Source: Candidatus Dojkabacteria bacterium (lineage in GTDB: Bacteria > Patescibacteriota > Dojkabacteria > J137). Taken from it: a DNA stretch of 64,000 bases. Location of the stretch: positions 231,772 to 295,771 of the forward strand of contig JBDTVZ010000001.1 in NCBI GenBank assembly GCA_040006935.1, read 5' to 3'. Below the pieces are notes generated by a model. That model saw only the letters and a program-made list of their open reading frames with translations, had not been told where the DNA came from and did not search any database. Shown piece by piece: positions 2,831 through 49,942 of the stretch; the first letter of the stretch is position 1; the number at the start of each line of letters is the position of its first letter. A program made the position numbers and the translations under genes.

Positions 2831-2880
2831 TTTGTCAGAAAAAAGTGAGAAAATGTCAAAATTTGTATTGCAATACATTT
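2831..2880 (+). promoter_or_regulatory. Conserved upstream motif copy 1 (TTGTCA ... AAAATGTCAAAATTTGTATTGCAATACATT), putative promoter/operator of the RHS operon
   Basis: A near-identical ~35-nt motif recurs at 14141..14195. It contains the perfect palindrome TGTATTGCAATACA about 53 nt upstream of the 2933 start codon. Confidence 0.35.
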
Positions 2881-2932: not shown

Positions 2933-4165
2933 TTGAGATTCTGCATGAATACGAGAATAAATTTAAAAAACCTTATGAAATCACGCAAGCGATTTTTAAT
3001 TTTATTGTTAATAATTGCATTTTTTATTGCAGGTATATTATTTTTAGGTCAAAACAATCCGCAGTTTATTACAAATGAGCAAATAAAAGGCCCAGATGCA
3101 CCAGTAAACCAAAGTGTTAGCGCAGAAGATTTAAATTTAAACTTGGATAAGTCAAGAGTTCTAATGTCTCAGGATGGAAATTCCATGCTAATACTTAAGG
3201 AAATTGATGAAAGAACTTCTTCTTTAACTACAACAACATATAGCCTCACGCTAAATAATAGCAAAGGAGAAATACTCAAAGTAATAGAAGAGAATAACAT
3301 TATAAATTCCAATTTTATTGATAATAATTTTATAGCCTATCAAATTATCGGTGACAATGCAGGAATATATAGATATGATATGTTAAACAATACAAAGCTT
3401 TTAATTCAAGAAACTTCTGACACAGAAGCGTTTAAATACTTTGCCTTTCTAAACTCAGATGAATATTTGCGCATTCAACCAAGAACTGGACAGGTTGGTT
3501 TAGTGAAAATATCTATTGGAGCAGATTTCCCATTAGGAGAGAAAGTGATTCCTACATTAGGAAGTTATTCTTCAACAAGTGCTTATTCTTGGCCAGCAGC
3601 ATCACCAGATAGTAAATATATAACTCTTCTGGATTCAGCTGGAGAAAATGGAACAGAATTAATTGTAACCTTTACTGGTAATCAAAATATCAATAAGCAA
3701 TACTTAAACATACCCATTGGCAACTTCCCTAGCCAATTAGCAAGTAATGACGCACCCATAAGCTGGAGTTCGGATAGCAAAATATTAATATTAGGCTATT
3801 TTGGAATTGCAGTAAATCTTGAGGATAAGTCTATTATTTATAATGCTGGTAGTAACACCTTTGGAATGAAATTATCTCCTGATAATACGTTATTATTAGT
3901 AAATAAAACGGAAGCACCTACAATAGAGAGCTTTGATAACAAACAAGCTTATAATTTACCTCCATATATTTCCGATTTCGGTTGGTTAAGTAATAAGTAT
4001 GCAATTTTAGTAATAGGGCAAAACTTATATTTATATAATATTTCTAATAGTGAACTCACAAAAGTTATCGAAGATATTGCAGATTTCCAGATAGTACATA
4101 CTGATGGGAATGGGAATGCTGTTATAAAAAAAGATTCTACTTTATTAAAAGTTACAACAATATAA
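2933..4165 (+). CDS. Signal-anchored secreted protein with PD40/TolB-like beta-propeller repeats
   Basis: N-terminal hydrophobic segment. Repeated SPDSKYITLL / SSDSKILIL / SPDNTLLL blades. The stop lies 1 nt before the RHS gene start, suggesting translational coupling. Confidence 0.4.
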   Translation: MRFCMNTRINLKNLMKSRKRFLILLLIIAFFIAGILFLGQNNPQFITNEQIKGPDAPVNQSVSAEDLNLNLDKSRVLMSQDGNSMLILKEIDERTSSLTTTTYSLTLNNSKGEILKVIEENNIINSNFIDNNFIAYQIIGDNAGIYRYDMLNNTKLLIQETSDTEAFKYFAFLNSDEYLRIQPRTGQVGLVKISIGADFPLGEKVIPTLGSYSSTSAYSWPAASPDSKYITLLDSAGENGTELIVTFTGNQNINKQYLNIPIGNFPSQLASNDAPISWSSDSKILILGYFGIAVNLEDKSIIYNAGSNTFGMKLSPDNTLLLVNKTEAPTIESFDNKQAYNLPPYISDFGWLSNKYAILVIGQNLYLYNISNSELTKVIEDIADFQIVHTDGNGNAVIKKDSTLLKVTTI

Positions 4166-4166
4166 T

Positions 4167-7100
4167 ATGCTCAAGAAACTACTTATTGTTACATTTTTAT
4201 TTCTATTCTTAACTTCCACAACTGGGAAAGTTGCTGCATTCTCATTCGATCCATTTGATAAATATGGGAAATTTCTACCTTGGCTAACTAATCCATCGTG
4301 GAGAGATAACCAACAAATGGTAATCACTTCTACCCCAAATGGACATCTTTCCAACTTTGGTTATAGAGCAGTTGATTTTGCAAGAAACGGTGGGGACGCA
4401 GCTACGATAGGTATTCCCGTTTTAGCTATTTCTGATGGAGTTGTGGAGAAAGTTGGTAATGATCCTCAAGGATGGGGGAACTATGTAATACTTGATCATC
4501 AGAATGGGTACAAAACAAGATATGCACATTTAGGCCTAGTAGTATTAAATAGTAGTGATGTGGGACATGCGATTAGAAGAGGGCAGGAAATTGGGGAATT
4601 TGGAAATACTGGACGTGTTACTAGTGCAAATTTGGAATTAGAAATGATGAATTCAGCTAATGGTGCAATTGACCCTATTGCAGATGGGAGAGCTTTCCAA
4701 GGATTTATTTCAAATAGTCAAGTGAGTGTATCTTGGCAAAGCCCAATTACTAGCTTTAACCACGATCACGCCTTTGTTAAATCCACAAATGATGTAAGGC
4801 CAAATGATCCCGGGAATCCTTGGGATCCACCTGTTATAGACCCATTAGACAGATATTTACAAAATTATGGATATTTATTCCCAAGTGGAATGGTTGCAGA
4901 ACCTATCAATACTGCATTAGGATCTTTTTTACATAGAAGCAATGATTTAGAATTTAATAATCCTTCTGGACCAGAATTTAAATTTGAGAGAGTTTCTAAT
5001 TCTCCAGATCAATTTATAGGATTTAATGGTTTAGGTTGGACAAATACATTCAATATTAAAGTTCTTGCGAACCCAGATAATACTTTCTCTGTGAAATTTG
5101 AAGATGGTAGAGGAGAAAGTTTCAAAGAAGTCGATACTGACCCAAACACATACACAAGAGATTTTCAGAAACTAACTGCAGAAAGTTTAGGAACATTAGT
5201 AAGACTTGATGCAAGTAATAATTATAGATTTCAATATACATCGGGAGATAAAACAATATATCTATTCAATTCGGATAAAGGTTCTTTAGCTTGGGGAAAA
5301 ATTGAAAAAATTACTTCAGTTGATGGAAAATCTATTAATTTTATTTACGATTCAAACGGGAATTTACAAAAAGCATCTGATTCATTTGGAAATTGGATGA
5401 CATTATCTTTTGGGCAAGATAAATTACTAGACACTTTAACAGGTTCTGATGGCTCTGTAATAAATTATTCATATAACTTTGATGGTCGATTAACTTCAGT
5501 TACAAAAAATAACGGTGGTGCATGGACTTACGCATATGATAGTCAAGGACGAATTACAACTATCATAGATGCAGAAGGTAAAACAGTTGTTGCAAAAAAT
5601 ACTTACGATAGTGCAGGAAGAGTAATTGAACAAATAGATGGAAATGGTGGAACAACAAAATTAGAATATACCTCCGACGCTTCCAATAATAAGTCTACAA
5701 AAATTACAGATCCATTAGGAAATGTCACAGTTCAGCTTCATAATGCAAATAACTATTTAACTGAAGAAGATAGAGCAGATGGGACTTCGATTAAGAAAGA
5801 ATACAACGCACAAGGTAAAGTAACAAAAGAAACAAATGAGTCAGCAGTCGCAACATTATATGAGTATGATGCTAATGGCAATACTACAAAGGAAACTCAT
5901 GCTGATGGTTATATAAAAGAAACTAAATATAGCTCACAAAATCTTCCAATAGAAATAAAAGATCCATCTGGAATTATTTCGATGGAATACAATAATGCTG
6001 GAAGAAAAACAAAAGTAACTGATCAGTTAGGTTCTGTATCTACTTATCTATATGATGCAAATAATAATTTAATAAAAGAAATTAATAATAATGGTAATGC
6101 AAAAGTATATGCATACAATGCAAATGGACACTTAGTTGAACAAAGTGATTTTTCAACTTCCTCTGATTTGAAATATGAGTATGATGCTCGAGGAAACCAA
6201 ACTAAAGTAACAGATGCTTTGAATAATGTTTCTACTTTTACATATGACGGAAGGAATCATTTAGTAAAGAGTACAGATAGTAGAGGAAGTGTGAAGACTT
6301 ATGCATACGATAGAAATGGCAACCTTGCATCCGAAACGGACGAAGCTGGTGCTGTCAAAACTTATAGAAGTGATAATAATGAAAATATTGTTGAAATTGC
6401 TTATCCAAGCCAGTACTTACAATATCCTACAAAACAAGTTGGAATATTAAATAATAGCAATACTTTAATTGATGAAAAATTTAATACTAACTTATCAAGG
6501 TGGGATGTTTCAAATAGTAATGTGCAAATTATTGGGAAAACTTTATTAACTAAAAATAAAACAACAGACTCTAAAATATATTCAGTGTGGTTAGAACCAA
6601 AGCTTGATCAAGAGTATTGGTTATCTGCTTTGTATAAAACTGCCAATGCTACTGCTCCTCAATTTAATATTGAAATGTATGATGCAAACTTTAATTTTGT
6701 AAGGAATGCAAAACCACTGGGATTAACTTGGAATGGTGGTACTTTTGACGGTTGGGATAACGAATACCGAAATGCATTCTACTTCCCAGAGGATTTGTGG
6801 AAAGGAAGTCAGGTTTCAATTATCAAATATGCTCGTTTAATTATCACTCTACCGGCTGGAAGTAATGGAACTGAAGGTACAACTATTTTGGATGATATTT
6901 ATTTAGGGCATTTGAATAGACCAATTGCAAAAATTATTAATTACAAAGGAGGTTGGTTAGGTGAGAAAATGATTTTAGATGCAACAGGTAGTTGGGATTT
7001 TGAAACTAATATTAAGAAAGCATATTGGACAGAAATAACTGGACCTGAAGTTTCAATTAATGAGGAATCCAACAAACTTATGAGTAGTTTTGTAATTCCA

Positions 7101-10100
7101 GCGCTGGATAAAGATACTGCATTTACTTTCAGATTAATTGTAGAAGATGGGAATGGAGTTAGAAGTATTGCCAGAACAAAAACCCTTGTTATTAAAAAGA
7201 ATACATTACTCCCAACAGAACTTAATAATGTAAGTAATGAAGTTCAGGATGATTTTATTGATCCGAACGACCCAACTTCACAAATTGATACGAGCTCCCC
7301 ACCAATTCTTGTAAATGTTACAGAGCAATTTGAATACGACAAAAATAATAATCGAATAAAGTATAAAGATAAAAATGGAAATATTACTAGGTATACATAC
7401 AACAATCGAAATGAATTAATTAAAACCGATAGTTATGGAGCAGGAGTTTCAATACTAAGCTCACAAATTTTTGCCTATGATAAAGTTGGAAATATTATTA
7501 AGAAAACTGATTTAACTTCTCCTGGAATTAACCAAGATGGAAACATAACTAGATTTATTTACGATTCTTTAAACAGAATTACAGAAACAATAAATCCTGA
7601 TGGAAAATCTCAAAAAATTAAATATGACATTCTTGGAAGAGTTATCGAAAAAACGGATTTAGAAGGAAATGTAACTAAATACGAATACGATGCATTAGGA
7701 AGAAATACTAAAATGATTGATTCTAGCAATGCAGCTACCATATATAGTTACGATAGAGTAGGCAATATGATAAAAAAAATTGATACTCTTGGAAACGCAA
7801 CTATTTATGCATACGATTCTTCAGGAAGAACTAGTGGGGTAAGAAATGCTATAGGAGATGTTGCTAATTATGTTTACGACTCAGTTGGAAATTTAATTGG
7901 TCAGAGAAATTTTGCAGGAGAATTAACAATTTTATCTTACGATGGGAATAATAATCTAATTGGGCAAACAAATACATTAAATTTAAAAACAAATTTTGAA
8001 TACGATTCTCGAAATAATTTAACAAAAATTACAGATCCAAATGGAGATTATACAACCTATAATTACGATGCAATGGGAAATAAAGTTAGAGAAGTAGATG
8101 CTTTAGGACAACAAAAAAATCTGGTGTACGATAATAATGGAAACCTAATTCAATTTACTGGAGAAAATGGCGAAAGTATTAAGACAAGTTATGATGGCCT
8201 TAATAGAAAAATTGCAGAAGTGGATCAGAAAGGGAATACTGTAAAATATCAATACGATTCACTAGGTAATGTTATAAGCCAGACAGATAAAAATGGGAAT
8301 GGGACAAGTTATAAATACGATAAGAATAGAAACGTAATCGAAATTGTAAATGCACTTGGTGATAGTCAACGAATTGAATATAGTCCAAATGGAAACATTT
8401 TAAAGACTATCGATCCGCTAGGGAATGCTACAACATACAAATATAATAATTTAAATGAAAATATTGAAACAATAAATCCAATTGGTGGATCAATTAAATC
8501 TACTTTTGATTCATTAGGTCGATTGACATCAAAAACGGATTTACAAAATAAAGCTACAACATATGCTTACGATTCATTAGGAAATGTAATAAAAATTACA
8601 GATAGAATAGGGAACGAAACTTCAATTGAGTACGACAAAGTTGGGAAAGTTATAAAAGTAACAAAACCAAATGGGGCAATATCTCAAAGTGAATACGACT
8701 CAATTGGAAGACTTGCAAAAGATATTAATGCGGAAAATGGAGTTACAACTTACGGTTACGACAGTGCTTCAAACTTAATCTCTACAACATTGCCAAATAA
8801 TATTACAACTAGCTTTGGATATGATTCATTAAATAGAAAAGTCCATGAAAGTGTTGCAGGAGTTTCTAAGAGTAGTGAGTACGATTCAATTGGAAGACTT
8901 ATTAAAAGTATAGATGCTAATGGGAATCAAACTAGTTATCAATATGATTCCGTAAATAATATTGCAAAAGTTACAAATCCAAGAGGCTTTAGTACTAATT
9001 TTGAATACGACAATAATGGAAATTTAACTAAAGTCACAAATGCAAAGGGCACTGCTACAACTTTTGAATATAATGGATTAAATCTTCAAACAAAAACTAC
9101 ACAAGCAGATGGAACAACTCTATCGCAAGTTTATGATAAAGATGGAAGAGTAGTGAAAAGTATTGATCCAAAAGGAAATTCTATAGGGAATTCTTACGAT
9201 GCTCTTGGAAGAATTGTAAGTAATAAAAATCAGTTAGGAAATTCAACAAGTTATGAATTTGATGCAAATGGTAATGTAGTTAAAAAAACTGACGCGGAAG
9301 GTAACCTTACAAAGTATGCATATGATAGTTTAGATAGATTAGTCAAAGTTACAGATGCTTTAAATCACGATACTAACTATGAATATGATAATGTTGGAAA
9401 TTTAACTAAGGAGATTAATGCCAATAATAAATCGACTATAAGAAATTATAATAAATTGAATCAGTTGAAGGAGGAAACAGATCCTCTTGGAAATAAAGTT
9501 AGTTATAGCTACGATTTAGCGGGAGATTTAGTTTCTAAAGTTAAAGCCGATGGAACTGTAGTAGGTTACTCATATGATGCTTTAAATAGATTAAACACTA
9601 TTGGATTTAGTGATTCTAATCAAAATGTAAATTATGAGTATGACAATGCTGGAAATATTACAAAAATACAAAAAGGTAATAGTGTAGTTTCATTTATTTA
9701 TGATGAGAATTCAAATCTAATTTCTGCAACACAAGATGGAAATTCTACAGTTTCTTATAGTTACGATGAACTTAATAACCAGTCTCAAATTAGGTATCCT
9801 AACCAAACAATTGCTGAATTTGACTATACGGCTTTGAATCAAGTCAAAGATTTGAGCATTAAAAAGAATTCTGCAATTTCTACAACTCAATTTGGTTACG
9901 ATGCCAACGGGAATTTAACTTCTCAGGTTAATCCAAATGGGTCCCAAATTTCTAAAGATTATGATAATACAAATAGATTAACTAAAGTTTCTGATATTTC
10001 AATTACTCACGATAGCGAGGGCGTGACAAACACATCTAATATTGCAGAGTTTAATTATAGTTTAGATAAAAACGGAAATAAGTTGAGCGAAGGATTTAAG

Positions 10101-12500
10101 TTAGGCGATGGAGCTGCTGCATTGGTCGGCACAAAAGATTATAACTACGATAGCTTACAAAGATTAACAAAAGCTACTGTAACTCATAATTCAGTCGGAC
10201 AAAATGTTGTTGATTCAATTGAAGAATTTGGCTATGACAATATTGGAAATAGAGTAAATCTCAAAACAACAAATGTGTCATCTCCAGCGGAGTCGAGGGA
10301 TGCGGAATTAAATTATTCTTACAACGATGCAAATCAATTAATTGAAGATTCTGCTAATAATTACTCTTATGATGCAAATGGAAATAGAATTAGCAAAACA
10401 GGTAAAGATGGTAATAAAAGTATTCAATACTCTTACGATCTTGCAGATAACTTAACGAATGTTCAAAGCAATATTAGCGGAAAAAATTATAATATAAGTT
10501 ATAACTACGATGGGTTAAATCGAAGAGTTGAGAAAAGTATTAATAGTACTAATAGCAATTTCTATAGTGATGTCTCTTATATTAAATATGCTTATCTTGG
10601 AAAATCCTTTGATACTATTTCTCAGGATGTAAATGGAACTATTCAAAACTTTTACAGAGCTGGAATTAGTAATATTGAGCCTACTTTAATTGCGAGTGAT
10701 TTAATAAGTCCAGCGGTTAAAGTAACAGATCCTGTTGTGCAAAATGATGAACCAGAAGTGCCAGCTTCGTTCCCAGTGTCATATCCTGGAGATGAGGTTC
10801 CAAGTTCATATCCAGTTTCTTATCCTGATGATTCAGTCACTCCAGAGCAAACTCCTGTTGAAGATACTTCTGTAAATTTAAGCTATTACTTTAGAGATGG
10901 ATTAGATTCTGTTGTGGGTGTTTCGAATAAGAATTCTACTGTAGATTATTTAAACGAATATTCATCTTATGGAAAAATTAAAGACTCTTCTAAATTAGAT
11001 GTGTTTAATTCAAAAACATATTCTGGACAAGATTATGATGTTGAAAGTGAAATGTCTTATTATGGTTCGAGATATTATGATTCTGAAATTGGGAGTTGGA
11101 ATAAAATGGATAGTTATCAAGGAAATACATCTAATCCAAGTTCGAGAAATAAATATGCATTTGTAGAAAATAATCCAGTGAATAGTGTGGATGTGGATGG
11201 ATTTGCTGGCGAACAGATGACAGGTGATCAAGCAATTACTTATCTAAATGATCAAGTAACACAAACAAATACATTTATTAGCCAAGCAGATAAAGCTGCG
11301 GTAGATGGACAGAATAGAATAAACGATATTAATAATAGTTTAGCTACTTTATCTGCAGACGCTACTTCTAAATACTGGTCAGCACACCATGCATTAGAAG
11401 ATGAGTATACATATGTTTTGATGAATGGAGTTGTTGGAAGATTACAAGCTAGAGGCTACTCGTTGAACTATGGTCAGGTTTACAATTATCTTGGCAATAA
11501 AATTACTGAGAAATCGTATATTTATGCTGCCAAACAACAACAATATTACGCCGCTGCGCAGTTGTATGAATCCTCTGTACAAGAGAGAGATTATTTGCAG
11601 AATGATTATCTACCTCAAATTTCATCTGCTAAGATAGAAGCTTTAAAATATATTGATGATACGAATTCATTAAAAAGTGATGTTCAAAATCAAATAGATC
11701 AGATCAAAGCTGATGCTCAAAATAGAGCAAACGCCGCAGAAACTCAGAGAAATATTTCCCTGTTATTTGCAGGTGCGGGGGCAGTTATAGGTGGAACTAT
11801 TTGTGCAGTAGCGACTGCTGGTATTGCAACAGCTGGATGTGTGGCTGGTGGTATAGCATTAGTAGCTGGCGTAGGGTCTGCTGCAAACTCAGAAATAAAT
11901 AGACAAGATGCTATGTATACTGTGAAGACAGGTACATTCATGGACTCTAAAGCTAATTTCTTTAATAATTTAGGATTTGATAAAACAACTTCAAGTTCAC
12001 TAAGTAATGCAATAAATGTTGGTGGGAATGTAGCATTTGTGGTTTCTGGAGTAGCAGCTGTTGCGACAGGTGTAATAGCAGGTGTGGCTTTATTGGCACC
12101 AGTTATAGCTGGTGTAGGAACTACCACTGCTGCTACTGCCGCCACAGAAGCTACCGCAACTGGTGGAACTATCGCCTTAGGATTAGATGAACTAGGAAGT
12201 AGCTTAGATAAATTTGCAGAAGAAGTACAAGCAATCACTTATAAAGCCTTTGTACCCGCAGAGGCGCTTGCTACCTCTGACTGGAAACCCTATGTCTTGG
12301 AGAAATTAGCGGATGTTTCCACTAAGATCAACTTTAATCTAACAGGTATAAATAGTATTATGAATAGTGTTAGTAGAGCATCAGCAGGAATGGGAGGAGC
12401 TACTGATTGGGAATTATTGCAAATATACAATAACCCACAATTCTGGGATAGAGTAACATTTTTTCAGGATGGAGTGATAGTACCAAACCCTTTTAATTAA
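4167..12500 (+). CDS. RHS/YD-repeat polymorphic toxin with signal peptide, degenerate M23 domain, YD repeats, RHS core and glycine-zipper C-terminal toxin domain
   Basis: 2777 aa with an N-terminal signal peptide. LytM-like block at aa ~55-165. Dozens of YxYDxxGN repeats span aa ~330-2190. RHS-associated core (YYGSRYYDSEIGSW...NKYAFVENNPVNSVDVDGF) ends at aa 2346. A distinct 431-aa C-terminal domain follows. Confidence 0.85.
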   Translation: MLKKLLIVTFLFLFLTSTTGKVAAFSFDPFDKYGKFLPWLTNPSWRDNQQMVITSTPNGHLSNFGYRAVDFARNGGDAATIGIPVLAISDGVVEKVGNDPQGWGNYVILDHQNGYKTRYAHLGLVVLNSSDVGHAIRRGQEIGEFGNTGRVTSANLELEMMNSANGAIDPIADGRAFQGFISNSQVSVSWQSPITSFNHDHAFVKSTNDVRPNDPGNPWDPPVIDPLDRYLQNYGYLFPSGMVAEPINTALGSFLHRSNDLEFNNPSGPEFKFERVSNSPDQFIGFNGLGWTNTFNIKVLANPDNTFSVKFEDGRGESFKEVDTDPNTYTRDFQKLTAESLGTLVRLDASNNYRFQYTSGDKTIYLFNSDKGSLAWGKIEKITSVDGKSINFIYDSNGNLQKASDSFGNWMTLSFGQDKLLDTLTGSDGSVINYSYNFDGRLTSVTKNNGGAWTYAYDSQGRITTIIDAEGKTVVAKNTYDSAGRVIEQIDGNGGTTKLEYTSDASNNKSTKITDPLGNVTVQLHNANNYLTEEDRADGTSIKKEYNAQGKVTKETNESAVATLYEYDANGNTTKETHADGYIKETKYSSQNLPIEIKDPSGIISMEYNNAGRKTKVTDQLGSVSTYLYDANNNLIKEINNNGNAKVYAYNANGHLVEQSDFSTSSDLKYEYDARGNQTKVTDALNNVSTFTYDGRNHLVKSTDSRGSVKTYAYDRNGNLASETDEAGAVKTYRSDNNENIVEIAYPSQYLQYPTKQVGILNNSNTLIDEKFNTNLSRWDVSNSNVQIIGKTLLTKNKTTDSKIYSVWLEPKLDQEYWLSALYKTANATAPQFNIEMYDANFNFVRNAKPLGLTWNGGTFDGWDNEYRNAFYFPEDLWKGSQVSIIKYARLIITLPAGSNGTEGTTILDDIYLGHLNRPIAKIINYKGGWLGEKMILDATGSWDFETNIKKAYWTEITGPEVSINEESNKLMSSFVIPALDKDTAFTFRLIVEDGNGVRSIARTKTLVIKKNTLLPTELNNVSNEVQDDFIDPNDPTSQIDTSSPPILVNVTEQFEYDKNNNRIKYKDKNGNITRYTYNNRNELIKTDSYGAGVSILSSQIFAYDKVGNIIKKTDLTSPGINQDGNITRFIYDSLNRITETINPDGKSQKIKYDILGRVIEKTDLEGNVTKYEYDALGRNTKMIDSSNAATIYSYDRVGNMIKKIDTLGNATIYAYDSSGRTSGVRNAIGDVANYVYDSVGNLIGQRNFAGELTILSYDGNNNLIGQTNTLNLKTNFEYDSRNNLTKITDPNGDYTTYNYDAMGNKVREVDALGQQKNLVYDNNGNLIQFTGENGESIKTSYDGLNRKIAEVDQKGNTVKYQYDSLGNVISQTDKNGNGTSYKYDKNRNVIEIVNALGDSQRIEYSPNGNILKTIDPLGNATTYKYNNLNENIETINPIGGSIKSTFDSLGRLTSKTDLQNKATTYAYDSLGNVIKITDRIGNETSIEYDKVGKVIKVTKPNGAISQSEYDSIGRLAKDINAENGVTTYGYDSASNLISTTLPNNITTSFGYDSLNRKVHESVAGVSKSSEYDSIGRLIKSIDANGNQTSYQYDSVNNIAKVTNPRGFSTNFEYDNNGNLTKVTNAKGTATTFEYNGLNLQTKTTQADGTTLSQVYDKDGRVVKSIDPKGNSIGNSYDALGRIVSNKNQLGNSTSYEFDANGNVVKKTDAEGNLTKYAYDSLDRLVKVTDALNHDTNYEYDNVGNLTKEINANNKSTIRNYNKLNQLKEETDPLGNKVSYSYDLAGDLVSKVKADGTVVGYSYDALNRLNTIGFSDSNQNVNYEYDNAGNITKIQKGNSVVSFIYDENSNLISATQDGNSTVSYSYDELNNQSQIRYPNQTIAEFDYTALNQVKDLSIKKNSAISTTQFGYDANGNLTSQVNPNGSQISKDYDNTNRLTKVSDISITHDSEGVTNTSNIAEFNYSLDKNGNKLSEGFKLGDGAAALVGTKDYNYDSLQRLTKATVTHNSVGQNVVDSIEEFGYDNIGNRVNLKTTNVSSPAESRDAELNYSYNDANQLIEDSANNYSYDANGNRISKTGKDGNKSIQYSYDLADNLTNVQSNISGKNYNISYNYDGLNRRVEKSINSTNSNFYSDVSYIKYAYLGKSFDTISQDVNGTIQNFYRAGISNIEPTLIASDLISPAVKVTDPVVQNDEPEVPASFPVSYPGDEVPSSYPVSYPDDSVTPEQTPVEDTSVNLSYYFRDGLDSVVGVSNKNSTVDYLNEYSSYGKIKDSSKLDVFNSKTYSGQDYDVESEMSYYGSRYYDSEIGSWNKMDSYQGNTSNPSSRNKYAFVENNPVNSVDVDGFAGEQMTGDQAITYLNDQVTQTNTFISQADKAAVDGQNRINDINNSLATLSADATSKYWSAHHALEDEYTYVLMNGVVGRLQARGYSLNYGQVYNYLGNKITEKSYIYAAKQQQYYAAAQLYESSVQERDYLQNDYLPQISSAKIEALKYIDDTNSLKSDVQNQIDQIKADAQNRANAAETQRNISLLFAGAGAVIGGTICAVATAGIATAGCVAGGIALVAGVGSAANSEINRQDAMYTVKTGTFMDSKANFFNNLGFDKTTSSSLSNAINVGGNVAFVVSGVAAVATGVIAGVALLAPVIAGVGTTTAATAATEATATGGTIALGLDELGSSLDKFAEEVQAITYKAFVPAEALATSDWKPYVLEKLADVSTKINFNLTGINSIMNSVSRASAGMGGATDWELLQIYNNPQFWDRVTFFQDGVIVPNPFN
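4329..4661 (+). other. Degenerate (probably non-catalytic) LytM/M23 peptidase-like domain within the RHS protein
   Basis: YRAVDF sits where HxxxD is expected. NLELEM sits where HxH is expected. The central YAHL and the glycine-rich core are retained. Confidence 0.5.
6921..7200 (+). other. Ig/PKD-like domain inserted within the YD-repeat region
   Basis: The stretch IAKIINYKGGWLGEKMILDATGSWDFE...TAFTFRLIVEDGNGVRS is non-YD and beta-sandwich-like. Confidence 0.35.
11205..12497 (+). other. C-terminal toxin domain of the RHS protein with two Gly/Ala-rich glycine-zipper hydrophobic segments (putative pore-former)
   Basis: It lies directly after the DVDGF end of the RHS core. Hydrophobic segments: AGAGAVIGGTICAVATAGIATAGCVAGGIALVAGVG and VAFVVSGVAAVATGVIAGVALLAPVIAGVG. 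Confidence 0.5.
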
Positions 12501-12517
12501 ATTTTAACTACTAACTT

Positions 12518-12910
12518 ATGATTATAAAGAGAAAATTTAGCTTAGTAGGATGGAGTCCAACTTTCGGGAGGATTTTATACAGAAGTCCTGGCGATCATAA
12601 AGACACTATTAATCTGGATATTGTATTTATTGACACAAAATATATAAATGCACCTACGCAGTTTGAACTTGAATCCATCAAAGAGGTGACACAATTAGAT
12701 GAAGGTATGAATTTTTTATCAAATAATAAGATAGCGGCTCTGGAACAAGACTTAAAGGTTTTTGAGCTTTCCACTAAGACTCAAAAATTCTATATTGTTG
12801 CCTCATTTATCTCAATGTTTGAAAATAAATTGGAGCTTCTGGAACTACCTTTTGAGAAAGATAAGACATCTATAAAGTCTTACAAGCCAATAGACACTAA
12901 AGGTTTATGA
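12518..12910 (+). CDS. Hypothetical protein, candidate immunity protein for the RHS C-terminal toxin
   Basis: 130 aa, beginning 18 nt after the RHS stop on the same strand. Position is the only evidence. Confidence 0.3.
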   Translation: MIIKRKFSLVGWSPTFGRILYRSPGDHKDTINLDIVFIDTKYINAPTQFELESIKEVTQLDEGMNFLSNNKIAALEQDLKVFELSTKTQKFYIVASFISMFENKLELLELPFEKDKTSIKSYKPIDTKGL

Positions 12911-13048
12911 TTTATTTTCTTTTAGGGTGGCTGCACCAGAACTAATTAAATTTAAAAATTTATGCCTTCTAGAAGAGTTCCTAAAGAACAAAGTATTAGT
13001 GTCGATATCGTTTTACATCACGCATTATATATCCCTTAATATTATTTT

Positions 13049-13669
13049 ATGTTTCTAATTTCAAATTCAGTTACAAAAATAATTTCAATCGTAAGTTCAG
13101 AACCTACGATTCAAATGCCTGTCAGGTTTAGTATTAAATACATAGATAATACTAATTATAATAAACTTCTAATATTCTATATTGAATTTGATGGTAAGTA
13201 CTTAGAATTAGAGTTTAATTATAAAGAAGGTGATTCTCAAGGAATTCTAATTAGTTGTGAGTTGATTAATTATCATGAAAAGTTTCAAATAATTGATGGG
13301 ATTTACACTCTTAGTGAAGATATTTCAAAGGATATACCACTTTTCGATTTAAATAACGGATTTCAAATTGAACCCACAAAAAACCCTTATATAGTAAAGA
13401 AAAGTACTCACGATTTCGGATTAATAAAATACGAGAATGCTATCCAAATTAATTTTTCAACTTCTAAATCTAATAAAAAATTTACTATTGGAGAGAAGAT
13501 CCTCATAGGTTTAGATACAGATAATAATTTAAATGAAATTGTTATACTGAATTTATCCGATATCGAAGAAGATTTAATCAATCTCAAGTTAAGTGATCAA
13601 GAGAATAAAAAGTATGACCTATCTTCTGAAACTTTGAAGTATTTAAAAGAAACAAGGAATTTATCTTAA
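13049..13669 (+). CDS. Hypothetical protein, possible second or orphan immunity protein
   Basis: 206-aa soluble, acidic protein downstream in the same orientation. Confidence 0.25.
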   Translation: MFLISNSVTKIISIVSSEPTIQMPVRFSIKYIDNTNYNKLLIFYIEFDGKYLELEFNYKEGDSQGILISCELINYHEKFQIIDGIYTLSEDISKDIPLFDLNNGFQIEPTKNPYIVKKSTHDFGLIKYENAIQINFSTSKSNKKFTIGEKILIGLDTDNNLNEIVILNLSDIEEDLINLKLSDQENKKYDLSSETLKYLKETRNLS

Positions 13670-13691
13670 TAATATTTATTAAATATTTATA

Positions 13692-14111
13692 ATGTTACTA
13701 AGAAGATTAATTGCACGATATATTGATAACTTTTCAATATTAATAGCTTCCTTTTTACTGGGTTTTGGAGGATTTTTAATTGCTGGGATTATTACACAAT
13801 CTAATAAGATAGCTACTTTAATATTTTTTTGTATTTTTGTAATAGCATTTATTATTGTATACGTTATAGATTTTATTGTTCTACCTAAAAAGACAGGTAG
13901 TACTGTTGGGAAGAGAGTATTAAGATTAAAAATCATCAATGATAATGGTAGTGATTTAAAATATTCACAATTAATTATAAGAGAGATTATTGTACAAGCG
14001 GTTGGTTTTTTTGGAATATTTGGTGTAATTCTTCTACTGATGAGTTATTCAGGACCTCAACATAAGTTATTTTATGACAGTACATTAGATATGAATGTTG
14101 TTAAAAGATAA
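13692..14111 (+). CDS. RDD-family-like small membrane protein
   Basis: Two hydrophobic helices flank TGSTVGKRVLRLKIIND...REIIVQ, which resembles the RDD family. Confidence 0.35.
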   Translation: MLLRRLIARYIDNFSILIASFLLGFGGFLIAGIITQSNKIATLIFFCIFVIAFIIVYVIDFIVLPKKTGSTVGKRVLRLKIINDNGSDLKYSQLIIREIIVQAVGFFGIFGVILLLMSYSGPQHKLFYDSTLDMNVVKR

Positions 14112-14140: not shown

Positions 14141-14195
14141 TATAAGTAAATTTTGTCATTCTCTCGTAGAAAATGTCAAAATCTGTATTGCGGTA
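14141..14195 (+). promoter_or_regulatory. Conserved upstream motif copy 2 (TTGTCA ... AAAATGTCAAAATCTGTATTGCGGTACAAT)
   Basis: About 31 of 35 nt identical to 2846..2880, about 60 nt upstream of the 14254 start. Confidence 0.35.
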
Positions 14196-14253
14196 CAATG
14201 TTTTATTATTCATAGCAAGTTATAATATACCAATTATATATTACAAGTAACAA

Positions 14254-14784
14254 ATGAGTGAAGTTAAAGCAATAAAGCAAGGAAATAATGATGACTTGAA
14301 GAAGAGAAAAAATGTAAATAACGTAGCCTATTTGTTTGTTCTTTACGGATTTTTAGGATTTTTTGAGAATCTTCTTTTGGTAGGTCCAACAGCTCACAAA
14401 CCAGAAGTCCTTGTAACATTCATTATCGGATTTATACTTCTTGCTATACCTTACATTATACTTCCCCTAAAGGCGAAACAAACTTTAGATGTTAATTATG
14501 CAAAAGCATTGAAATTTTATTTATTACTAGTCATGGTAATCCCCACAATTGTATTATTTGTTGTATTTCTAATAACACATAACCTTGTAAGTATCCCTTT
14601 TTCTATCTTTGATTTATTGTTTTTTGGACTTTCATTTCAATTCGAAAATAATATTAAGGAGTTTAATCCAAAATTTAAATATTCCTTTAAACAATTTTTG
14701 AAAGTATTTGTTCCATCTGCTCTTTTATTATGTGCTGGATTTACACTGACTTTTATTTCAGGAATACTTAACGCAGTCAAATAG
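14254..14784 (+). CDS. Polytopic membrane protein (4-5 TM), hypothetical
   Basis: Hydrophobicity pattern. It shares the upstream motif with the RHS operon. Confidence 0.4.
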   Translation: MSEVKAIKQGNNDDLKKRKNVNNVAYLFVLYGFLGFFENLLLVGPTAHKPEVLVTFIIGFILLAIPYIILPLKAKQTLDVNYAKALKFYLLLVMVIPTIVLFVVFLITHNLVSIPFSIFDLLFFGLSFQFENNIKEFNPKFKYSFKQFLKVFVPSALLLCAGFTLTFISGILNAVK

Positions 14785-26993: not shown

Positions 26994-29900
26994 TTACTCA
27001 ATCCACCAATCCAACCAAACACTTGCACCTCCACTTAATTCTCGATACTCAACTTTAATGGTGTGAAGACCAGCAGTCATATTTAATGTTGCATCATCTT
27101 CCTCATATCCATGAGGTCCCCAATGATCTATTGCGAGAGTTCCGTCAATCCAGACTCTTACCCCATCATCGCTACCTTCCATAAATGTATATGTGTCTGC
27201 ATCAAAGTAGAATTGTCCCTCATATCGAGCAGAGAAGTTGTTACTACTAATTCCACTGATTGGTGAGTTCGATCCCCAATCATAATCAACATTCGATGTG
27301 TACATAGACATTGTTGGTGTTCCTGTTAATGTTGCATTATTAAAGTATTTTGCACAGAACCTTCCAACGTCCACACAATTTGATGTTTGAGTTTGAGGAA
27401 GTGTCCAAGATAATCCTGCTGTAGCATCTCCTGTTCCATCGTAATATTCCATTTTGATAGCATGAGCTCCTGCTGTTAATGTAACTGTCGAAGAATTCAT
27501 AGTTGTTGTATGCGATGTCCAATTATTTATTTTTTGAACATTATCTACCCATAACCTAACTCCATTATCTGATGTTGTAACGAACGTATAACTTCCAGCA
27601 GTTGGGAAATTAATATTTCCAGTCCATCTTGCAGAGAAATTATTACTATTTACTGATGCATCGGGACTTCCTCCCCACCAGAAATTAGAAATTGTATCTT
27701 CACATCTTGTTAGAACTGGAGAGCCAGTTAAACCTGTATTGTTATAGTATTGCGCAGTAAATGTACAACTCGCATTGACTTTGAATAGAGCAGATTTGCT
27801 TGCTGTTGCTCCGTGTGAATCTGTTGCTATGAATTCTATATTCTGTTGACCAGTCCAGTTTACTGGTGTTGTTATTGTGACAACATTGCTAGCATTGATA
27901 CTTACAGTTAGCGGTCCATTATTTGCATAGCTCCAAGTGATTGGATCTGCAATATCTGGGTCACTTCCATAATTATCTAAATCGAATGTTGTAAAGCTTT
28001 GCCCTAATACGATTGTTTGTCCTGGAATTGTATTTACAACTGGATCATTATTATCAACAGGTTCAAAGTATTGCCATACTGATGCTCCTCCTCCTATTTC
28101 TCTGTACTCACCTTTTACTTGATGAACACCAGCAGATACGTTTATAGTTTTATAATCCTCTTGGTACCCATGTGGACCCCAAGAGTCTATTACTGCTTGA
28201 TTATCTAGCCAAACTCTTACTCCATCATCAGATGCTGTCCCAAATTCATAAGTTTCTCCTGTGAAAGTAAAGTTTCCTCTCCATCTTAACGAAAATGCGT
28301 CATCGTTAGTTATTCCATGTCCAGGACCCCATTGCTGCCAGTCTGCATCCACACCATTTTGTACTGCTACAAATACTGGACTTCCGGATAGAGTAGAATT
28401 ATTGAAATATTCTACACAGTAGAGATCACTTGGAATAGTATTGCAATTCCCTCCGTACTGATACCATACTAAAGCTACGACAGCATCACCCGTCGCTTCG
28501 TAATATTCCACTTTTACACTATGAATTCCTGAAGTCAATGTTATGTCATAATCATTATTTTCCCATGAGTGACTTGTCCAGTTATCAATTCTTAGTGTGT
28601 TATCTACCCAAACCCTAATTCCATTATCTGAGTTTGTATGGAAAGTGTAATTGCCAGCCGCAAAGTTTATATTCCCTTGGTATCTTGCAGAGAAATTATC
28701 TGCATTAACAGATGGATCCGGACTATCACCATCCCACCAGAAGTTTTGAACAAGACTTTCGCACCTTGTAAGAGCTGGGGTTCCAGTTAAGGTTTGATTG
28801 TTAAAGTATTGTGCAGTGAATTGTCCTGCACATGCGTCCACCACATTATTTACTTTGAATAGCGCAGAACTACTTGCAGTAGCAGCGGAACTATCTGTTG
28901 CTGTAAATGTAACCGATTGTTCGCCCACCCAGTTTGCAGGAGTTGCTACTGTAACTATATTGTTTGAATCGATATTTACAGTTAAAGGTCCGTTATTGCT
29001 ATAGCTCCAAGTTATTGAATCTGCAATATCTGGATCTGTGCCATAAGTATCTAAATCAAATGTTGTAAAATTTTGTCCTAGGGTAACTGTCTGGCTTGGG
29101 ATTTGTGTTACTACCGGTGTACTATTTGCAACTGGAACAAAATATTGCTCTATGATTGCATTTCCACCAATTTCTCGGAATTCACCTTTTACTTTGTGAG
29201 TACCAGAATTTACTCTCATAGTCTTAGCAGTTTCCTGATAACCATGAGGTCCCCAGTCATCTATTACTAATTGATTATCTAACCAAATTCTTGCTCCATC
29301 GTCTGAAATTTCATCAAATTTATATGTTCCAGTGTTAAAACTGAAGTTGCCCGTCCACCTTATAGAGAAACTATCATCATTAGTAATTCCATGTCCTGGT
29401 CCCCATTGTCCCCAGTCAGAATCTACCACTCGTTTTGTAGTTACAAATACAGGGCTTCCGGATAAATCAGAGTTATTGAAGAATTCTATACAATATAGAT
29501 TTGTTGGAACTGAATTACAATTTCCTCCATATTGATACCATGTTAAAGATGCTACTGCATCACCTGTTGCTTCGTAATACTCAACTTTTATATTATGAGT
29601 TCCTGCAGATAAAGTGATGTCGTAATCATTGTTTTCCCAAGAGTGACTTGTCCAATTATCAATTCCTAGAGCTCCATCAATCCAAACTCTAATTCCATTG
29701 TCTGAGTTTGTATGGAATGTGTAATTACCAGCAGCAAAGTTTATATTTCCTATCCATCTTGTCGAAAAATTATCTGCATTTACTGTTGCATCAGGACTTG
29801 TTGTTCCCCACCAGAAATTATCGATAACATCTTCACACCTTGTAAGAACCGGTGCATTAGTTAAAGTTTGATTGTTAAAGTATTGTGCAGTGAATTGCCC

Positions 29901-32900
29901 TACGCAAGCATCCGTGCTAACTGTGAAGGTTGCTGTACTATTTGCAGATGCATTTGCAGCATCAGTTAAAGTAAACATTATTGATTGAGATCCTGTCCAG
30001 CCATTTGGAATTGTTATAGTTACAACTTTTTGAGTATCAATATTTACACCCAAAGAACCGTTTCCTGAATATGACCAAGTTAGTGTATCGCCAGCATCTT
30101 GATCGCTTCCATAATTATCCAAATCAAATGTTGTAAAGTTCTGTCCTGTTGAAATTGTCTGACCAGGAATTTGACTTACTGTTGGTGGATTATTTGGCGG
30201 TGTATTAACTGTAAATACTGCCGTCGAACTTGCATTGGCGCTTAAATTATCTGTGGCTTTAAAAGTAATATTCTCCGTTCCAGTCCAATTACTTGGATAG
30301 GTTAGAGTAGCTACATTATTTACAATTGAAATTGAAATATTTGTATTTCCAGAGTAACTCCAAGTTACTGAATCTCCTGCATCCTGATCACTTCCATACG
30401 AACTCAAATTAATTGTTGAGAAATTTTGACCTCTAGTAATAGTTTGATTTGGAAGTTGATTTACAACGGGTGCGTGATTTGCATTTAGTAAATCAATTTG
30501 CAATTTTGCTTTTGCCCCACCTGCATTTTCAAAGTATTCCATTTTAACCTCATGTACGCCTGCTGTAAGAGTTTTAGATCCTGCATATGGAGTCTGACCA
30601 TCTTGATCAATCCATCTATCAACAACTAAAGTACCATCAACCCACAATCGTGTTCCATCATCTGTCCATGTCGTGAAGTTATAATTCCCTCCTGCTGCAA
30701 AGTTTATATTTCCTGTCCAACGAATAGAGAAGTTATCTTGTGGACACTCAATTTGATTTGTAATTGCTACAGGATTTAATGTTCCAGTTACTGAATTACA
30801 ATAGGTAATGAATATTCTTCCTAAGCCGCCTTGTCCACCGCCTCCAGAAGGTCCATTTTGATTTCCACCGTTTCCTCCGAGTGCTGTAGATAAGTTTGAT
30901 CCAAGATTAAAAATACTTCCATGTAGAATTATAGTTCCTGCGGCACCTCCACCTCCACCACCAACGTGGCTTCCAGCATTGTTCCCGCCACTTCCATCCG
31001 CATTAATTTTACCTTGAAGATTAATTACATTAGCATATCCAAATAGAATTCCTCCTCCATTTCCACCATTATTTCCATTTATTGTTGTGATATTTCTTCC
31101 TTGATACCCACCGCTAGCTCCACCACCAGAACCAAATAATACTGAAGATTGATCATTTACACCAATACTTGATCCTCCACCACCTCCACCTGTTCCAACA
31201 TCCGGACTATTCCATGAGTATCCTCCAGTTCCAGTATATCCTAATGCTTGAGAACCACCGTTAGAACCGGCAACCGAAACTCCTCCTCCATTTCCACCAC
31301 CTACTGTACTTCCGGCTAATCCTCCTGGCTGTCCATTTACATTACTATCGGATCCACCTCCGCCTCCACCTCCTGCTGTAGCATTTGCACCACCACCTCC
31401 TCCACCTGTTCCTTCATCACCTTGGCCTGAATTTAAGAAGTCATATCCTCCGGATCCAGCTCCTCCTGATCTTAAACCTGCAGGAGATGTTGCACCATTT
31501 CCAGAACCACTTCCACCTCCGTATGAACCAGTTCCATTTGGAGAATTACCTCCTCTTCCAACAAATCCATCTGTAGACTCACCATTAATCCCTCCTAGAT
31601 TTACTCCCACACCAACTCCTCCTCTGTAACCCTTACCTTTTAGGTCAATTATTCCTAAAGTTCCCACATTTACTGTGCCGTTTGCTTTGAATGCCATAAC
31701 TCCCCCTGTACTTCCATCCCAATTTGCTACAGTGAAGATTCCGTCTATATTAATATTTCTATATTGATTGACTTTTAGAATCTGAGCTACTGAACCACTA
31801 CCCACTGTATAAGTATTATTCAAATTATTTGTTAATGTTAAATTTGTTCCTGAAATACTTGCAACGGTATTGAATTCATACTTTCCCACTCCTGTTCCTA
31901 ACATTTGAATTATTAATATACTATCACCTGCAGTAAATGCACTTGAAGGTGCTCCACTTATAGTAACAATCTTTTGATTTGCAGCAGAAGTCAATGAAAC
32001 TGCACTTCTAACAGTATCTGTATAAACTGTCTGGTTTGTAGAAACACTTAGATCTCCTTCTCTTCCATCTCCTGTTTCGTTTCCTGGAGTTACTAGAGGT
32101 ACTGGACCTCCTCCCGCCCAATCAAAATCAATTGTGTCATCACATGATGTACCTACAGGAGTTCCATTTAACTCTTTATTTGGATAATATTGACCATAAT
32201 ATTGATTAGTTGAACAAGGCCATATTGTAAAGTTTGCACTCTTAGTTGCTTCTGCATGCCAATTGTCAGTTGCTTTAAATGTAATATTTTCTGTACCAGT
32301 CCAATTTGCAGGATAAGTTAAAGTTGCTACGTTATTCGTAATAGAAACTCCAATATTAGAATTACCTGAGTAACTCCAAGTTATTGTGTCTCCACTATCC
32401 TGATCACTTCCATAACTAGCTAAATTTATATTTGTAAAAGCTTCACCTGCTCCAATTCGCTGATCCGGAATAGTTGTTATAACAGGTGCATGGTTATTTG
32501 CTGGTTGAACAAAAAATTGTGCTAATGCATTGCCCGTTGCTTCGTAGTATTCCATTTTTACAGTATGTAAGCCAGCAGTTATAGGAGTAGCTTGAGATAA
32601 GTTAACCCCGGCATTATTTATCCATTTATCTATTAATAAATTAGCGTCAACCCAAAGCTTTGTACCATCATCTGTATTTGTCTGGAATATATATGTATTT
32701 GCAGAGAAATTTATATTTCCTGTCCAACGAATAGAGAAGTGATCTTGAAAACAATCCGTTTGAAGTTGTTTTGTTACCTCTAGTGCAGAGCCTGTTATGG
32801 CATCACAATATTCTATCCTTGTTCTACCACCTCCACCATTTCCACCACCTGCTCCTTGCGAAGGTGTTCCTGGTCCTCCATTCCCGCCATTTACTAATAA

Positions 32901-48883: not shown

Positions 48884-49942
48884 TCAAGAATTCTTTTCAA
48901 TTACAATATATTTCCTTAAAGAATTTATTAACTCACTGCTCAAGGAGATATTTCGGGTAAGCATTTTCTTATTTTTATTTGAACCAAAAATTACTTTTAA
49001 CGGGATATCGCCAGGGTTTTCCCTAATTATATCTCTAATTCTCAATATTTCTTCGGCTTCTATAACATTTATTAAATTAATTATGAGTTCTGTAAAGGCA
49101 ATAAAATCATTCGTTTTCTTTTTCAATATTTCCTTTTCCGAAATTCTCCGCTCAAGCCTTTGAATATCTATTTCTGCAGGAAGTTGTTCAGGAAAGATTC
49201 CTTTTTCGTTTAGTAATTTACGAACCGAGAAGTTATTCTCTTTATGTTCTGCTTTGATATTTGGTTTTGTTCTGAGATCTTTAGATAAAGTATTAAAGGT
49301 TGTAATTTCAGTGGCAAGATCCTTTGCTTTTATAGTAATTGTAGGTAAATGGTCAGCTAACGAACCAGTTTTTATATTTAATTTATTCTTTATAACTCTT
49401 GTGGGCATATTAAATAAGGCTTGGTCCCCAACCGATCTAACCTCAGCTATATCACTACTTGTTAGTCCCTTTGAAGACAGCACGCCTGAGAATTTCTTTT
49501 CGGTTTCTTTTAATTTTCTTCTGGCTTTGATTCTCTCTATAATATGGCTCTTTTCTGTTTCCAGTTCTCGTTTTCGTGTTTGAGTGGCAAAATATGATTG
49601 TGCTAGTGCTATGGTTTCCTTTCTTGGATCACCATTTTGAGCTATAAGATAACATGCATATCTCGTTAACTTATAATCTACTGTTGGTCTCATTGCTTCA
49701 TTAGATCTTCCAGCGGCAATCTTAGACATTTTCGTGACCTCACGAAAATGTCCTTCAATTTGTGGATAGATTTTTAACATTGAAGTTTGTGCTTTTTTTA
49801 TGACTTTATGAAAACTTTCCCAAGTCTCGTACCCAAGCGTACTCATCAATTCTCTTGCGTACCAATATTCTTCATCCGCACCGTTTAGATGTTTTATACT
49901 ATCAAAAGTTCCAAATTTTGTGGTATTTATTTTATTTTCCAA
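48884..49942 (-). CDS. dinD: DNA-damage-inducible protein D (DinD) family
   Basis: YWYARELMSTLGYETWESFHKVIKKAQ and LTRYACYLIAQNGDPRKETIALAQSYFATQTRKRE parallel E. coli DinD. Confidence 0.65.
   Translation of the reverse strand: MENKINTTKFGTFDSIKHLNGADEEYWYARELMSTLGYETWESFHKVIKKAQTSMLKIYPQIEGHFREVTKMSKIAAGRSNEAMRPTVDYKLTRYACYLIAQNGDPRKETIALAQSYFATQTRKRELETEKSHIIERIKARRKLKETEKKFSGVLSSKGLTSSDIAEVRSVGDQALFNMPTRVIKNKLNIKTGSLADHLPTITIKAKDLATEITTFNTLSKDLRTKPNIKAEHKENNFSVRKLLNEKGIFPEQLPAEIDIQRLERRISEKEILKKKTNDFIAFTELIINLINVIEAEEILRIRDIIRENPGDIPLKVIFGSNKNKKMLTRNISLSSELINSLRKYIVIEKNS

Follow-up and report, generated by a model that had tools for sequence, protein, structure and literature searches.

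A probable composite tail in an RHS polymorphic toxin of a Candidatus Dojkabacteria bacterium: Gly/Ala-rich hydrophobic segments, a putative soluble payload domain and a matching soluble immunity protein

Among RHS toxins, Tse5 (PA2684) of Pseudomonas aeruginosa has an RHS shell that ends in an aspartyl-protease core motif and is followed by a C-terminal fragment whose hydrophobic helices insert into membranes (PMC9637101, PMC10684867). This fragment, Tse5-CT, is 149 amino acids (aa) long and inserts wholly into the membrane, and its neighbour Tsi5 has two predicted transmembrane regions (PMC9637101). In Tde1, a DNase of Agrobacterium tumefaciens with a soluble cognate immunity protein, a small-residue, GxxxG-type hydrophobic run stands in cis with a cytoplasm-acting domain, and both the permeabilisation of membranes and the DNase's entry into prey depend on this glycine zipper (PMC10240207). 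The same translocation role has been proposed for N-terminal hydrophobic helices of Rhs proteins of type VI secretion systems (T6SS; PMC9825190). Here we describe an RHS polymorphic toxin gene and its downstream partner in 64,000 nucleotides (nt) of Candidatus Dojkabacteria DNA (assembly GCA_040006935.1, contig JBDTVZ010000001.1, positions 231,772 to 295,771 of the forward strand), which we call the window and to whose coordinates all positions refer. An original prediction had taken the tail of this toxin for a Tse5-like glycine-zipper pore former without a clear immunity partner.

The window protein does contain a Gly/Ala-rich module that may plausibly act at a membrane, but the tail is not built like Tse5-CT. 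Tse5-CT has no soluble domain, whereas the window tail is 432 aa long and has a globular end. Tsi5 is a membrane protein with two transmembrane helices, whereas the conserved partner in the window is soluble. Tse5 is delivered by the T6SS via a PAAR-like N-terminus and VgrG, whereas the N-terminus of the window protein consists of a Sec signal peptide, an M23 peptidase domain and DUF6531. The locus lacks three features that define the Tse5 family, namely a short tail that inserts wholly into the membrane, a membrane immunity protein and T6SS delivery. When PDB chain sequences were searched with the tail there was no match at E<=1, and with the tail or a 44-sequence profile of its terminal domain nothing appeared even at E 10; the file holds Tse5 entries, the presence of the 149-aa CT chain among them being unverified. 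The term "glycine zipper" does not occur in either of the primary Tse5 papers.

The other described systems each resemble the window locus in part. The glycine-zipper motif of Tde1 is N-terminal in a small T6SS effector whose N-terminus also binds the adaptor Tap1, whereas the window segments are internal to an RHS tail and, at 2 x 43 aa, exceed the Tde1 motif in length, and the payload is not Ntox15; their function here is presumed by analogy. The locus of the Staphylococcus aureus LXG toxin EsxX combines a glycine-zipper membrane toxin with soluble and polytopic membrane protectors (PMC12744356), much like the mix of open reading frames (ORFs) downstream of the window toxin. However, the EsxX protector ExiB (DUF5085) binds the glycine zipper, whereas the 130-aa ORF of the window has no DUF5085 match and co-varies with the terminal domain also in proteins that lack a hydrophobic segment; in addition, EsxX is secreted by a type VII secretion system and not as a Sec-exported RHS protein. 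Similar in overall plan are WapA/WapI of Bacillus subtilis and the bipartite CdiA-CT (see also PMC9424206). WapA is a YD-repeat protein that is exported by Sec and associated with the wall; its C-terminal toxin varies, and a cytoplasmic immunity protein is encoded next to it. In CdiA-CT an N-terminal entry domain takes the C-terminal toxin across the inner membrane. The CdiA entry domains differ in being folded and in exploiting specific inner-membrane proteins, and they are not Gly/Ala-rich hydrophobic helices. The window locus carries the marks of a polymorphic toxin-immunity system: a YD/RHS shell, a core-end motif, a mobile C-terminal domain and a co-varying downstream immunity gene. A further difference is that WapA toxins are tRNases, and we know of no hydrophobic pre-toxin module in WapA.

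We think it rather likely that the RHS tail is composite and combines a Gly/Ala-rich translocation module with a cytoplasm-acting payload against which the soluble 130-aa protein gives immunity. The toxin would be exported by Sec, with a signal peptide, an M23 peptidoglycan peptidase and a YD-repeat shell preceding the 432-residue tail. Autoproteolysis would free the tail from the shell, and the two uncharged Gly/Ala-rich stretches would then enter the target membrane and either carry the enzyme domain or let it through. The payload would be the last 113 residues, a predicted soluble alpha/beta domain with the invariant Glu2749 that would act in the target cytoplasm, while the producer would be protected by the 130-aa protein encoded 17 nt downstream. 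The relevant features are as follows:

4167..12500 (+): gene for the RHS polymorphic toxin of 2777 aa
4167..4238 (+): Sec-type signal peptide, MLKKLLIVTFLFLFLTSTTGKVAA followed by F, at a predicted cleavage site
4398..4673 (+): Peptidase_M23 domain, aa 78-169 of the RHS protein, Pfam E 1.4e-17
11190..11204 (+): DVDG followed by F, where the RHS core ends and the tail begins; a variant of the DPxGL autoproteolysis motif
11205..11756 (+): polar, helix-prone pre-toxin region, aa 2347-2530, lineage-specific
11757..11885 (+): Gly/Ala-rich hydrophobic segment 1, aa 2531-2573
11886..12017 (+): polar loop that separates the two segments, aa 2574-2617
12018..12146 (+): Gly/Ala-rich hydrophobic segment 2, aa 2618-2660
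12159..12497 (+): terminal globular domain, the putative toxin, 113 aa (aa 2665-2777), unnamed family
12411..12413 (+): codon of Glu2749, in the motif GATDWELLQI; candidate catalytic residue
12518..12910 (+): putative cognate immunity gene, 130 aa, soluble, without signal peptide; its start lies 17 nt past the toxin stop codon

Homologue searches with the whole tail as query were swamped by Gly/Ala words (8000 candidates scored) and gave a single relative, a metagenomic RHS fragment (P0001) that aligned over the last ~140 residues with 46% identity (E 4e-27) and that has no Gly/Ala stretch. The terminal region alone as query yielded two further relatives, and the terminal domain shares 46-60% identity with the C-terminal ends of proteins that are not related in other respects. 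A profile of four sequences (A3), scored against 1.84 billion representative proteins, matched 496 of them at E<=1e-3, a number that falls to 228 for E<=1e-10 and to 31 for E<=1e-30; the 496 matches stand for protein clusters, about 500 at 50% identity. Among the 150 matches listed of the 496, which are proteins of 71-2539 aa, the domain match reaches the C-terminus or stops no more than about 25 residues short of it. Pfam searches of 30 long members found the domain on RHS repeats (14), FG-GAP (4), SpvB (3), TcdB_mid (2), PT-HINT (2) and PT-TG (1) scaffolds, with DUF6531 and teneurin-like shells also represented. Because it keeps its C-terminal position across such differing scaffolds, the domain is, by sequence comparison, a mobile C-terminal module of polymorphic toxins. 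In their source databases the carriers are named "hypothetical protein" or "RHS repeat-associated protein".

AlphaFold2 models the terminal domain as an alpha/beta fold with a mean predicted local distance difference test score (pLDDT) of 89.7 and a predicted template-modelling score of 0.83. In an alignment of 44 family members two Leu residues, Glu85 (corresponding to Glu2749), a third Leu and a Pro are invariant, and this Glu is also invariant in a 30-sequence alignment. Near-invariant in the 44 sequences are a Phe, an Ala, the Phe-Asn of FNL, the Thr and Trp of GATDWELLQI and a C-terminal Asn-Pro-Phe, and an Arg is largely conserved. The window copy carries every one of the invariant and near-invariant residues. 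Foldseek gave weak matches to a SEFIR domain (9ot1; E 0.12, template-modelling score 0.52), TIR-STING (9lmq), SIR2 (8sxx) and a nucleoside 2-deoxyribosyltransferase (4mcj), and to viral and phage nucleoside deoxyribosyltransferases (NDTs) at E 0.3; no Pfam match to TIR or NDT was found for the domain. The modelled fold may thus be weakly TIR- or deoxyribosyltransferase-like, and we offer as a guess, one we regard as possible but doubtful, that the payload is a nucleotide or NAD-type N-glycosidase. That the domain is toxic, and enzymatically so, is presumed. The original prediction had set confident homology to a soluble enzymatic toxin fold as the finding that would speak against it, and the end of the tail is largely of that kind: a soluble, widespread toxin module, with a presumptive enzymatic activity.

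The partner of this domain emerged from the flanking sequences of its relatives. In the P0001 contig (L001), an uncalled ORF starting 16 nt past the toxin gene matches the window ORF at 12518..12910 (BLASTP E 2e-11, 26% identity over 110 residues), and ORFs of the same family follow the domain in the P0002 and P0003 contigs (L003 and L004), the P0003 copy being truncated where its contig stops. When one genome per species was scanned with the 4-sequence alignment as query, 43 loci were found, from Paenibacillus, Lachnospiraceae and Eubacterium (Bacillota), Myxococcota, Planctomycetota, Verrucomicrobiota, Gamma- and Betaproteobacteria, Acidobacteriota, Actinomycetota, Dormiibacterota and Thiomargarita, in all more than 8 phyla. 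Directly past the toxin stop codon, 40 of the 43 carry an ORF of the immunity family (profile E 1e-20 to 1e-59), the exceptions being L015, L025 and L042. The window ORF alone matches the corresponding gene in about 38 loci (tblastn), best in Lachnospiraceae (33% identity, E 3e-14) and Paenibacillus (31%). A look-up of the identical 130-aa sequence returned no record, and the sequence does not occur among the GTDB representatives. The pairing holds whether or not the linker contains a hydrophobic segment. Because a homologue adjoins the domain in 40 of the 43 genomes and in the three metagenome contigs, we take the 130-aa ORF, by comparison, to encode the terminal domain's cognate immunity protein, which would work in the cytoplasm; the partner that had seemed unclear can now be named.

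As originally predicted, the 130-aa ORF has no transmembrane helix and in fact no hydrophobic segment at all; among the 43 immunity-family ORFs from the related loci none has a transmembrane-like 19-mer or a signal-peptide-like core, so that the family as a whole appears cytoplasmic. Searches of Pfam, NCBIfam and PADLOC with the immunity proteins were empty. Since the immunity protein is apparently cytoplasmic, the target of the toxin is probably in the cytoplasm as well. The apparent mismatch between a membrane toxin and a soluble immunity protein is resolved by the soluble terminal domain. We also considered the 130-aa ORF as an ExiB-like binder of the glycine zipper and rejected this; the family also follows domains without a hydrophobic segment, including domain-only ORFs.

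Several loci depart from the usual arrangement. In the gammaproteobacterial loci L015 (4309-4575) and L025 (4311-4577), mutually similar 88-aa ORFs take the place of the usual immunity family and may represent an alternative one. Extra copies of the immunity gene occur in tandem in L043 (4104-4445 and 4438-4833) and as an additional gene in L034 (7690-8034). The domain forms an ORF of its own, of about 110 aa and with the partner gene present, in L016, L017, L021, L031, L035, L039 and L047. These domain-only ORFs and extra immunity copies look like orphan cassettes or immunity islands.

The RHS core of the window protein ends in YAFVENNPVNSVDVDG followed by F (aa 2346, nt 11202-11204). In the core-end motif, which runs from YYDSEIGSWNKMDSYQG to NKYAFVENNPVNSVDVDG and this F, DVDGF stands in place of DPxGL and marks the start of the variable tail. 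Motifs of the DPxGL type act in autoproteolysis (PMC9637101) and, by analogy, the window protein would be cleaved between DVDG and F, which is essentially where the original prediction had placed the tail start (11205). The tail consists of five parts: a polar, helix-prone region, hydrophobic segment 1, a polar loop, hydrophobic segment 2 and the terminal 113 aa. The post-core region is thus more than the two hydrophobic helices that had been described, which are preceded by about 185 polar residues and followed by the 113-aa globular domain.

The two Gly/Ala-rich hydrophobic stretches are real and far from chance. Each is 43 residues long, segment 1 (aa 2531-2573) reading SLLFAGAGAVIGGTICAVATAGIATAGCVAGGIALVAGVGSAA and segment 2 (aa 2618-2660) VGGNVAFVVSGVAAVATGVIAGVALLAPVIAGVGTTTAATAAT. 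Gly and Ala make up 53% and 44% of them, respectively, as against 14% of the whole protein, and their 86 positions do not include a single charged residue (P about 2e-9 for the composition of the protein). Small-xxx-small triplets are many, GxxxG occurs only three times and GxxxGxxxG not at all. On the translocon hydrophobicity scale, the apparent energy of insertion for the best 19-mers of the two stretches is +0.6 to +2.1 kcal/mol, compared with -1.4 to -5.9 kcal/mol for the strongest transmembrane helices of the membrane proteins encoded nearby (ORF 2933, the RDD protein and ORF 14254, listed below). Because of this difference we regard the segments as marginally hydrophobic, which is compatible with Sec export and with storage in the RHS shell, yet also with later entry into a membrane. 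Metagenome searches found no relatives of the loop between the segments (aa 2574-2617).

Although no similarity to the window segments is detectable, analogous ones recur in distant homologues. Of 54 homologues whose core motif can be recognised, 21 have a hydrophobic segment between the core and the toxin domain; Gly/Ala-rich linkers are found in P0028, P0036, P0022, P0065, P0119, P0148, L028 (Myxococcota) and L009, and in the Eubacterium locus L010 the linker segments are hydrophobic and less Gly/Ala-rich. Across 24 long homologues there are 2.4 hydrophobic segments per 1000 aa in the linker versus 0.065 upstream, an enrichment of about 37-fold. Since 21 of the 54 homologues carry such segments and the linker is so strongly enriched in them, their presence before the toxin domain is, on this comparative evidence, not accidental. 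By analogy with Tde1, the Gly/Ala-rich helices of the window protein may serve in translocation. The most far-reaching version of this idea, which we hold to be unlikely, is that these helices are a convergent self-translocation device of Sec-secreted RHS proteins that have no injection machine, and that the payload, which would represent a new and phylogenetically widespread family, has a TIR/deoxyribosyltransferase-like fold in minimal form and breaks down NAD or some other nucleotide. For RHS/WapA-type toxins without an injection apparatus, the linker enrichment provides a testable hypothesis of how the cytoplasmic membrane of the target is crossed. The invariant glutamate offers a mutational handle on a toxin/immunity pair that spans about 500 clusters and many phyla and that is absent from Pfam and NCBIfam.

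Further genes and two copies of a 29-nt element surround the toxin and immunity genes:

2849..2877 (+): 29-nt element copy 1, GAAAATGTCAAAATTTGTATTGCAATACA; 56 nt upstream of ORF 2933
2933..4165 (+): ORF 2933, 410-aa protein with a single N-terminal transmembrane anchor, without family match
13049..13669 (+): soluble ORF, 206 aa, which matches DUF2283 weakly and below threshold; not conserved alongside the toxin family
13692..14111 (+): membrane protein of the RDD family, 139 aa, three transmembrane helices, Pfam E 1.8e-17; not conserved with the toxin family
14169..14197 (+): 29-nt element copy 2; 57 nt upstream of ORF 14254
14254..14784 (+): multi-pass membrane protein, 176 aa; the immunity candidate favoured by the original prediction

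The stop codon of ORF 2933 lies 1 nt before the RHS start codon and, for this reason, the two genes are probably co-transcribed. The upstream motif that ORF 14254 had been said to share with the operon is the 29-nt element GAAAATGTCAAAATYTGTATTGCRRTACA, for which there are two matches in 64 kb against 0 expected. It contains the palindrome TGTATTGCAATACA followed by a T-run, which folds as a weak 5-bp hairpin, and a further shared sequence, TAATTTTGTCA, lies about 10 nt upstream of each copy; the element has no Rfam match. The two copies flank an 11.3-kb cassette that runs from ORF 2933 through the RHS and immunity genes and ORF 13049 to the RDD gene. The element could be an operator or promoter element for co-regulation, a weak terminator, or a pair of direct repeats bounding the cassette, and none of these readings makes ORF 14254 an immunity gene.

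Of the readings that compete with a composite tail, the closest to the original prediction is that the Gly/Ala helices are themselves a toxin, or a second one, that forms depolarising pores as Tse5 or EsxX does, with the membrane protein encoded at 13692 or 14254 protecting from outside and the 130-aa protein covering the terminal domain only. The two long uncharged stretches invite this reading, depolarising glycine-zipper toxins are known, immunity to EsxX requires the soluble ExiAB as well as the membrane proteins ExiCD (PMC12744356), and the Tde1 glycine zipper inhibits growth independently of the DNase (PMC10240207). In addition, two genes for multi-pass membrane proteins lie within 1.8 kb, and ORF 14254 has the upstream element of the operon. 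However, the unit that is conserved together with an immunity gene is the soluble terminal domain and not the hydrophobic region. By tblastn, neither 13692 nor 14254 has a homologue in the 47 related loci (nor do ORF 2933, ORF 13049 and the pre-toxin region), relatives of ORF 14254 were not found in a metagenome scan, and what comes after the immunity gene in the related loci, even in those with hydrophobic linkers, is not consistently a gene for a multi-pass membrane protein. The tail is three times the length of Tse5-CT and differently organised (PMC9637101), it finds no match in the PDB sequence file with its Tse5 entries, PAAR and T6SS features are absent and the glycine-zipper periodicity is not significant. 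We therefore consider pore formation by the helices unlikely, and the preference once given to ORF 14254 as the immunity gene, with 13692 as the alternative, finds no counterpart in the comparison. A secondary protective role for either protein, for which ExiAB/ExiCD (PMC12744356) would be the precedent, is without comparative support and seems to us equally unlikely.

It is also conceivable, with still lower probability, that the hydrophobic stretches act in the producer, either as a stop-transfer signal or anchor in its membrane or as compressible filler within the RHS shell. Given the Sec signal peptide, internal hydrophobic segments would meet the translocon; the low AlphaFold2 confidence of the region fits a flexible filler, and Tse5-CT is disordered inside its shell (PMC10684867). 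But at +0.6 to +2.1 kcal/mol the segments would work poorly as stop-transfer signals, a linker that serves as filler is normally polar but not one of the 86 residues here is charged, and the roughly 37-fold enrichment of analogous segments in the pre-toxin linkers of distant homologues points to delivery of the payload. That the terminal domain might instead be a receptor-binding or regulatory module with the 130-aa protein as its chaperone would agree with the want of any enzymatic family match, but we regard this as very improbable. The C-terminal position on RHS, PT-HINT, PT-TG and SpvB/TcdB scaffolds, the domain-only ORFs of about 110 aa with a partner gene, the tandem (L043) and extra (L034) partner copies and the pattern of an invariant Glu, near-invariant Thr and Asn and largely conserved Arg are hallmarks of polymorphic toxin/immunity cassettes.

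A number of observations nevertheless weigh against the composite reading of the tail that we prefer. The (G/A)xxx(G/A) spacing that the original prediction had singled out is no special feature, since small residues at i+4 are as numerous in shuffled segments (p 0.6-0.9). A homologue search with the polar, helical N-terminal part of the tail was empty and AlphaFold2 models this pre-toxin part poorly (pLDDT 30-50, helices of low confidence), so that its role rests on composition and analogy. Among the 54 homologues with a recognisable core motif, 33 have no hydrophobic linker which, together with the domain-only ORFs, implies that the payload does not need such a segment. Glycine-zipper segments can be toxic alone, as in EsxX (PMC12744356) and in the DNase-independent growth inhibition by Tde1 (PMC10240207). 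The terminal domain itself, whether as a single query or as the 44-sequence profile, has no match in Pfam, NCBIfam, PADLOC or PDB sequences, and Foldseek searches of PDB and BFVD (viral models) returned nothing below E 0.1 (best E 0.12).

Outside its tail, the RHS protein matches RHS_repeat (E 9e-203, 26 stretches), Peptidase_M23 and DUF6531 in Pfam; the same scan found no PAAR match and no T6SS features. The repeat region matches solved Rhs shells, including that of Tse5 (8cp6), at E 1e-38 to 1e-41. The repeats are interrupted by a non-repeat insert of ~320 residues (aa 745-1065, 6399-7361) with a weak PKD-like match (E 2e-4, below cutoff), and this insert may be a receptor-binding module. 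A tblastn search of the window found no second copy of the toxin, the immunity gene or the RHS core.

The window has a G+C content of about 32%. It falls to 24-26% across ORF 13049 and the RDD gene (13000-14000), against 30-37% in the neighbourhood, and stands at 37-41% in the toxin tail, where it is raised by Gly/Ala codons. Opposite the Gly/Ala-rich coding stretch lies an antisense ORF (11744..12238 (-), 164 aa), which we dismissed as a gene; it is most likely a composition artefact of the runs of GCN and GGN codons. No recognisable Shine-Dalgarno sequence was seen upstream of the starts at 4167, 12518, 13049, 13692 and 14254, scans of the window for promoters and terminators stayed at chance level, and an Rfam scan found two tRNAs only. 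Many of the ORFs in the window have no Pfam match, and the DNA looks as if it came from a little-sampled lineage of low G+C content. An ORF at 48884-49942 (-) carries a BRO-N domain, typical of phage and mobile elements, and several of its neighbours lack a family match. Finally, a second giant ORF (26994-37973 (-), 3659 aa) encodes a subtilase S8 domain, an M23 peptidase, bacterial Ig domains and eight PA14 domains, and the presence of two M23-bearing giant surface proteins within 64 kb suggests a cell-wall-attacking lifestyle.

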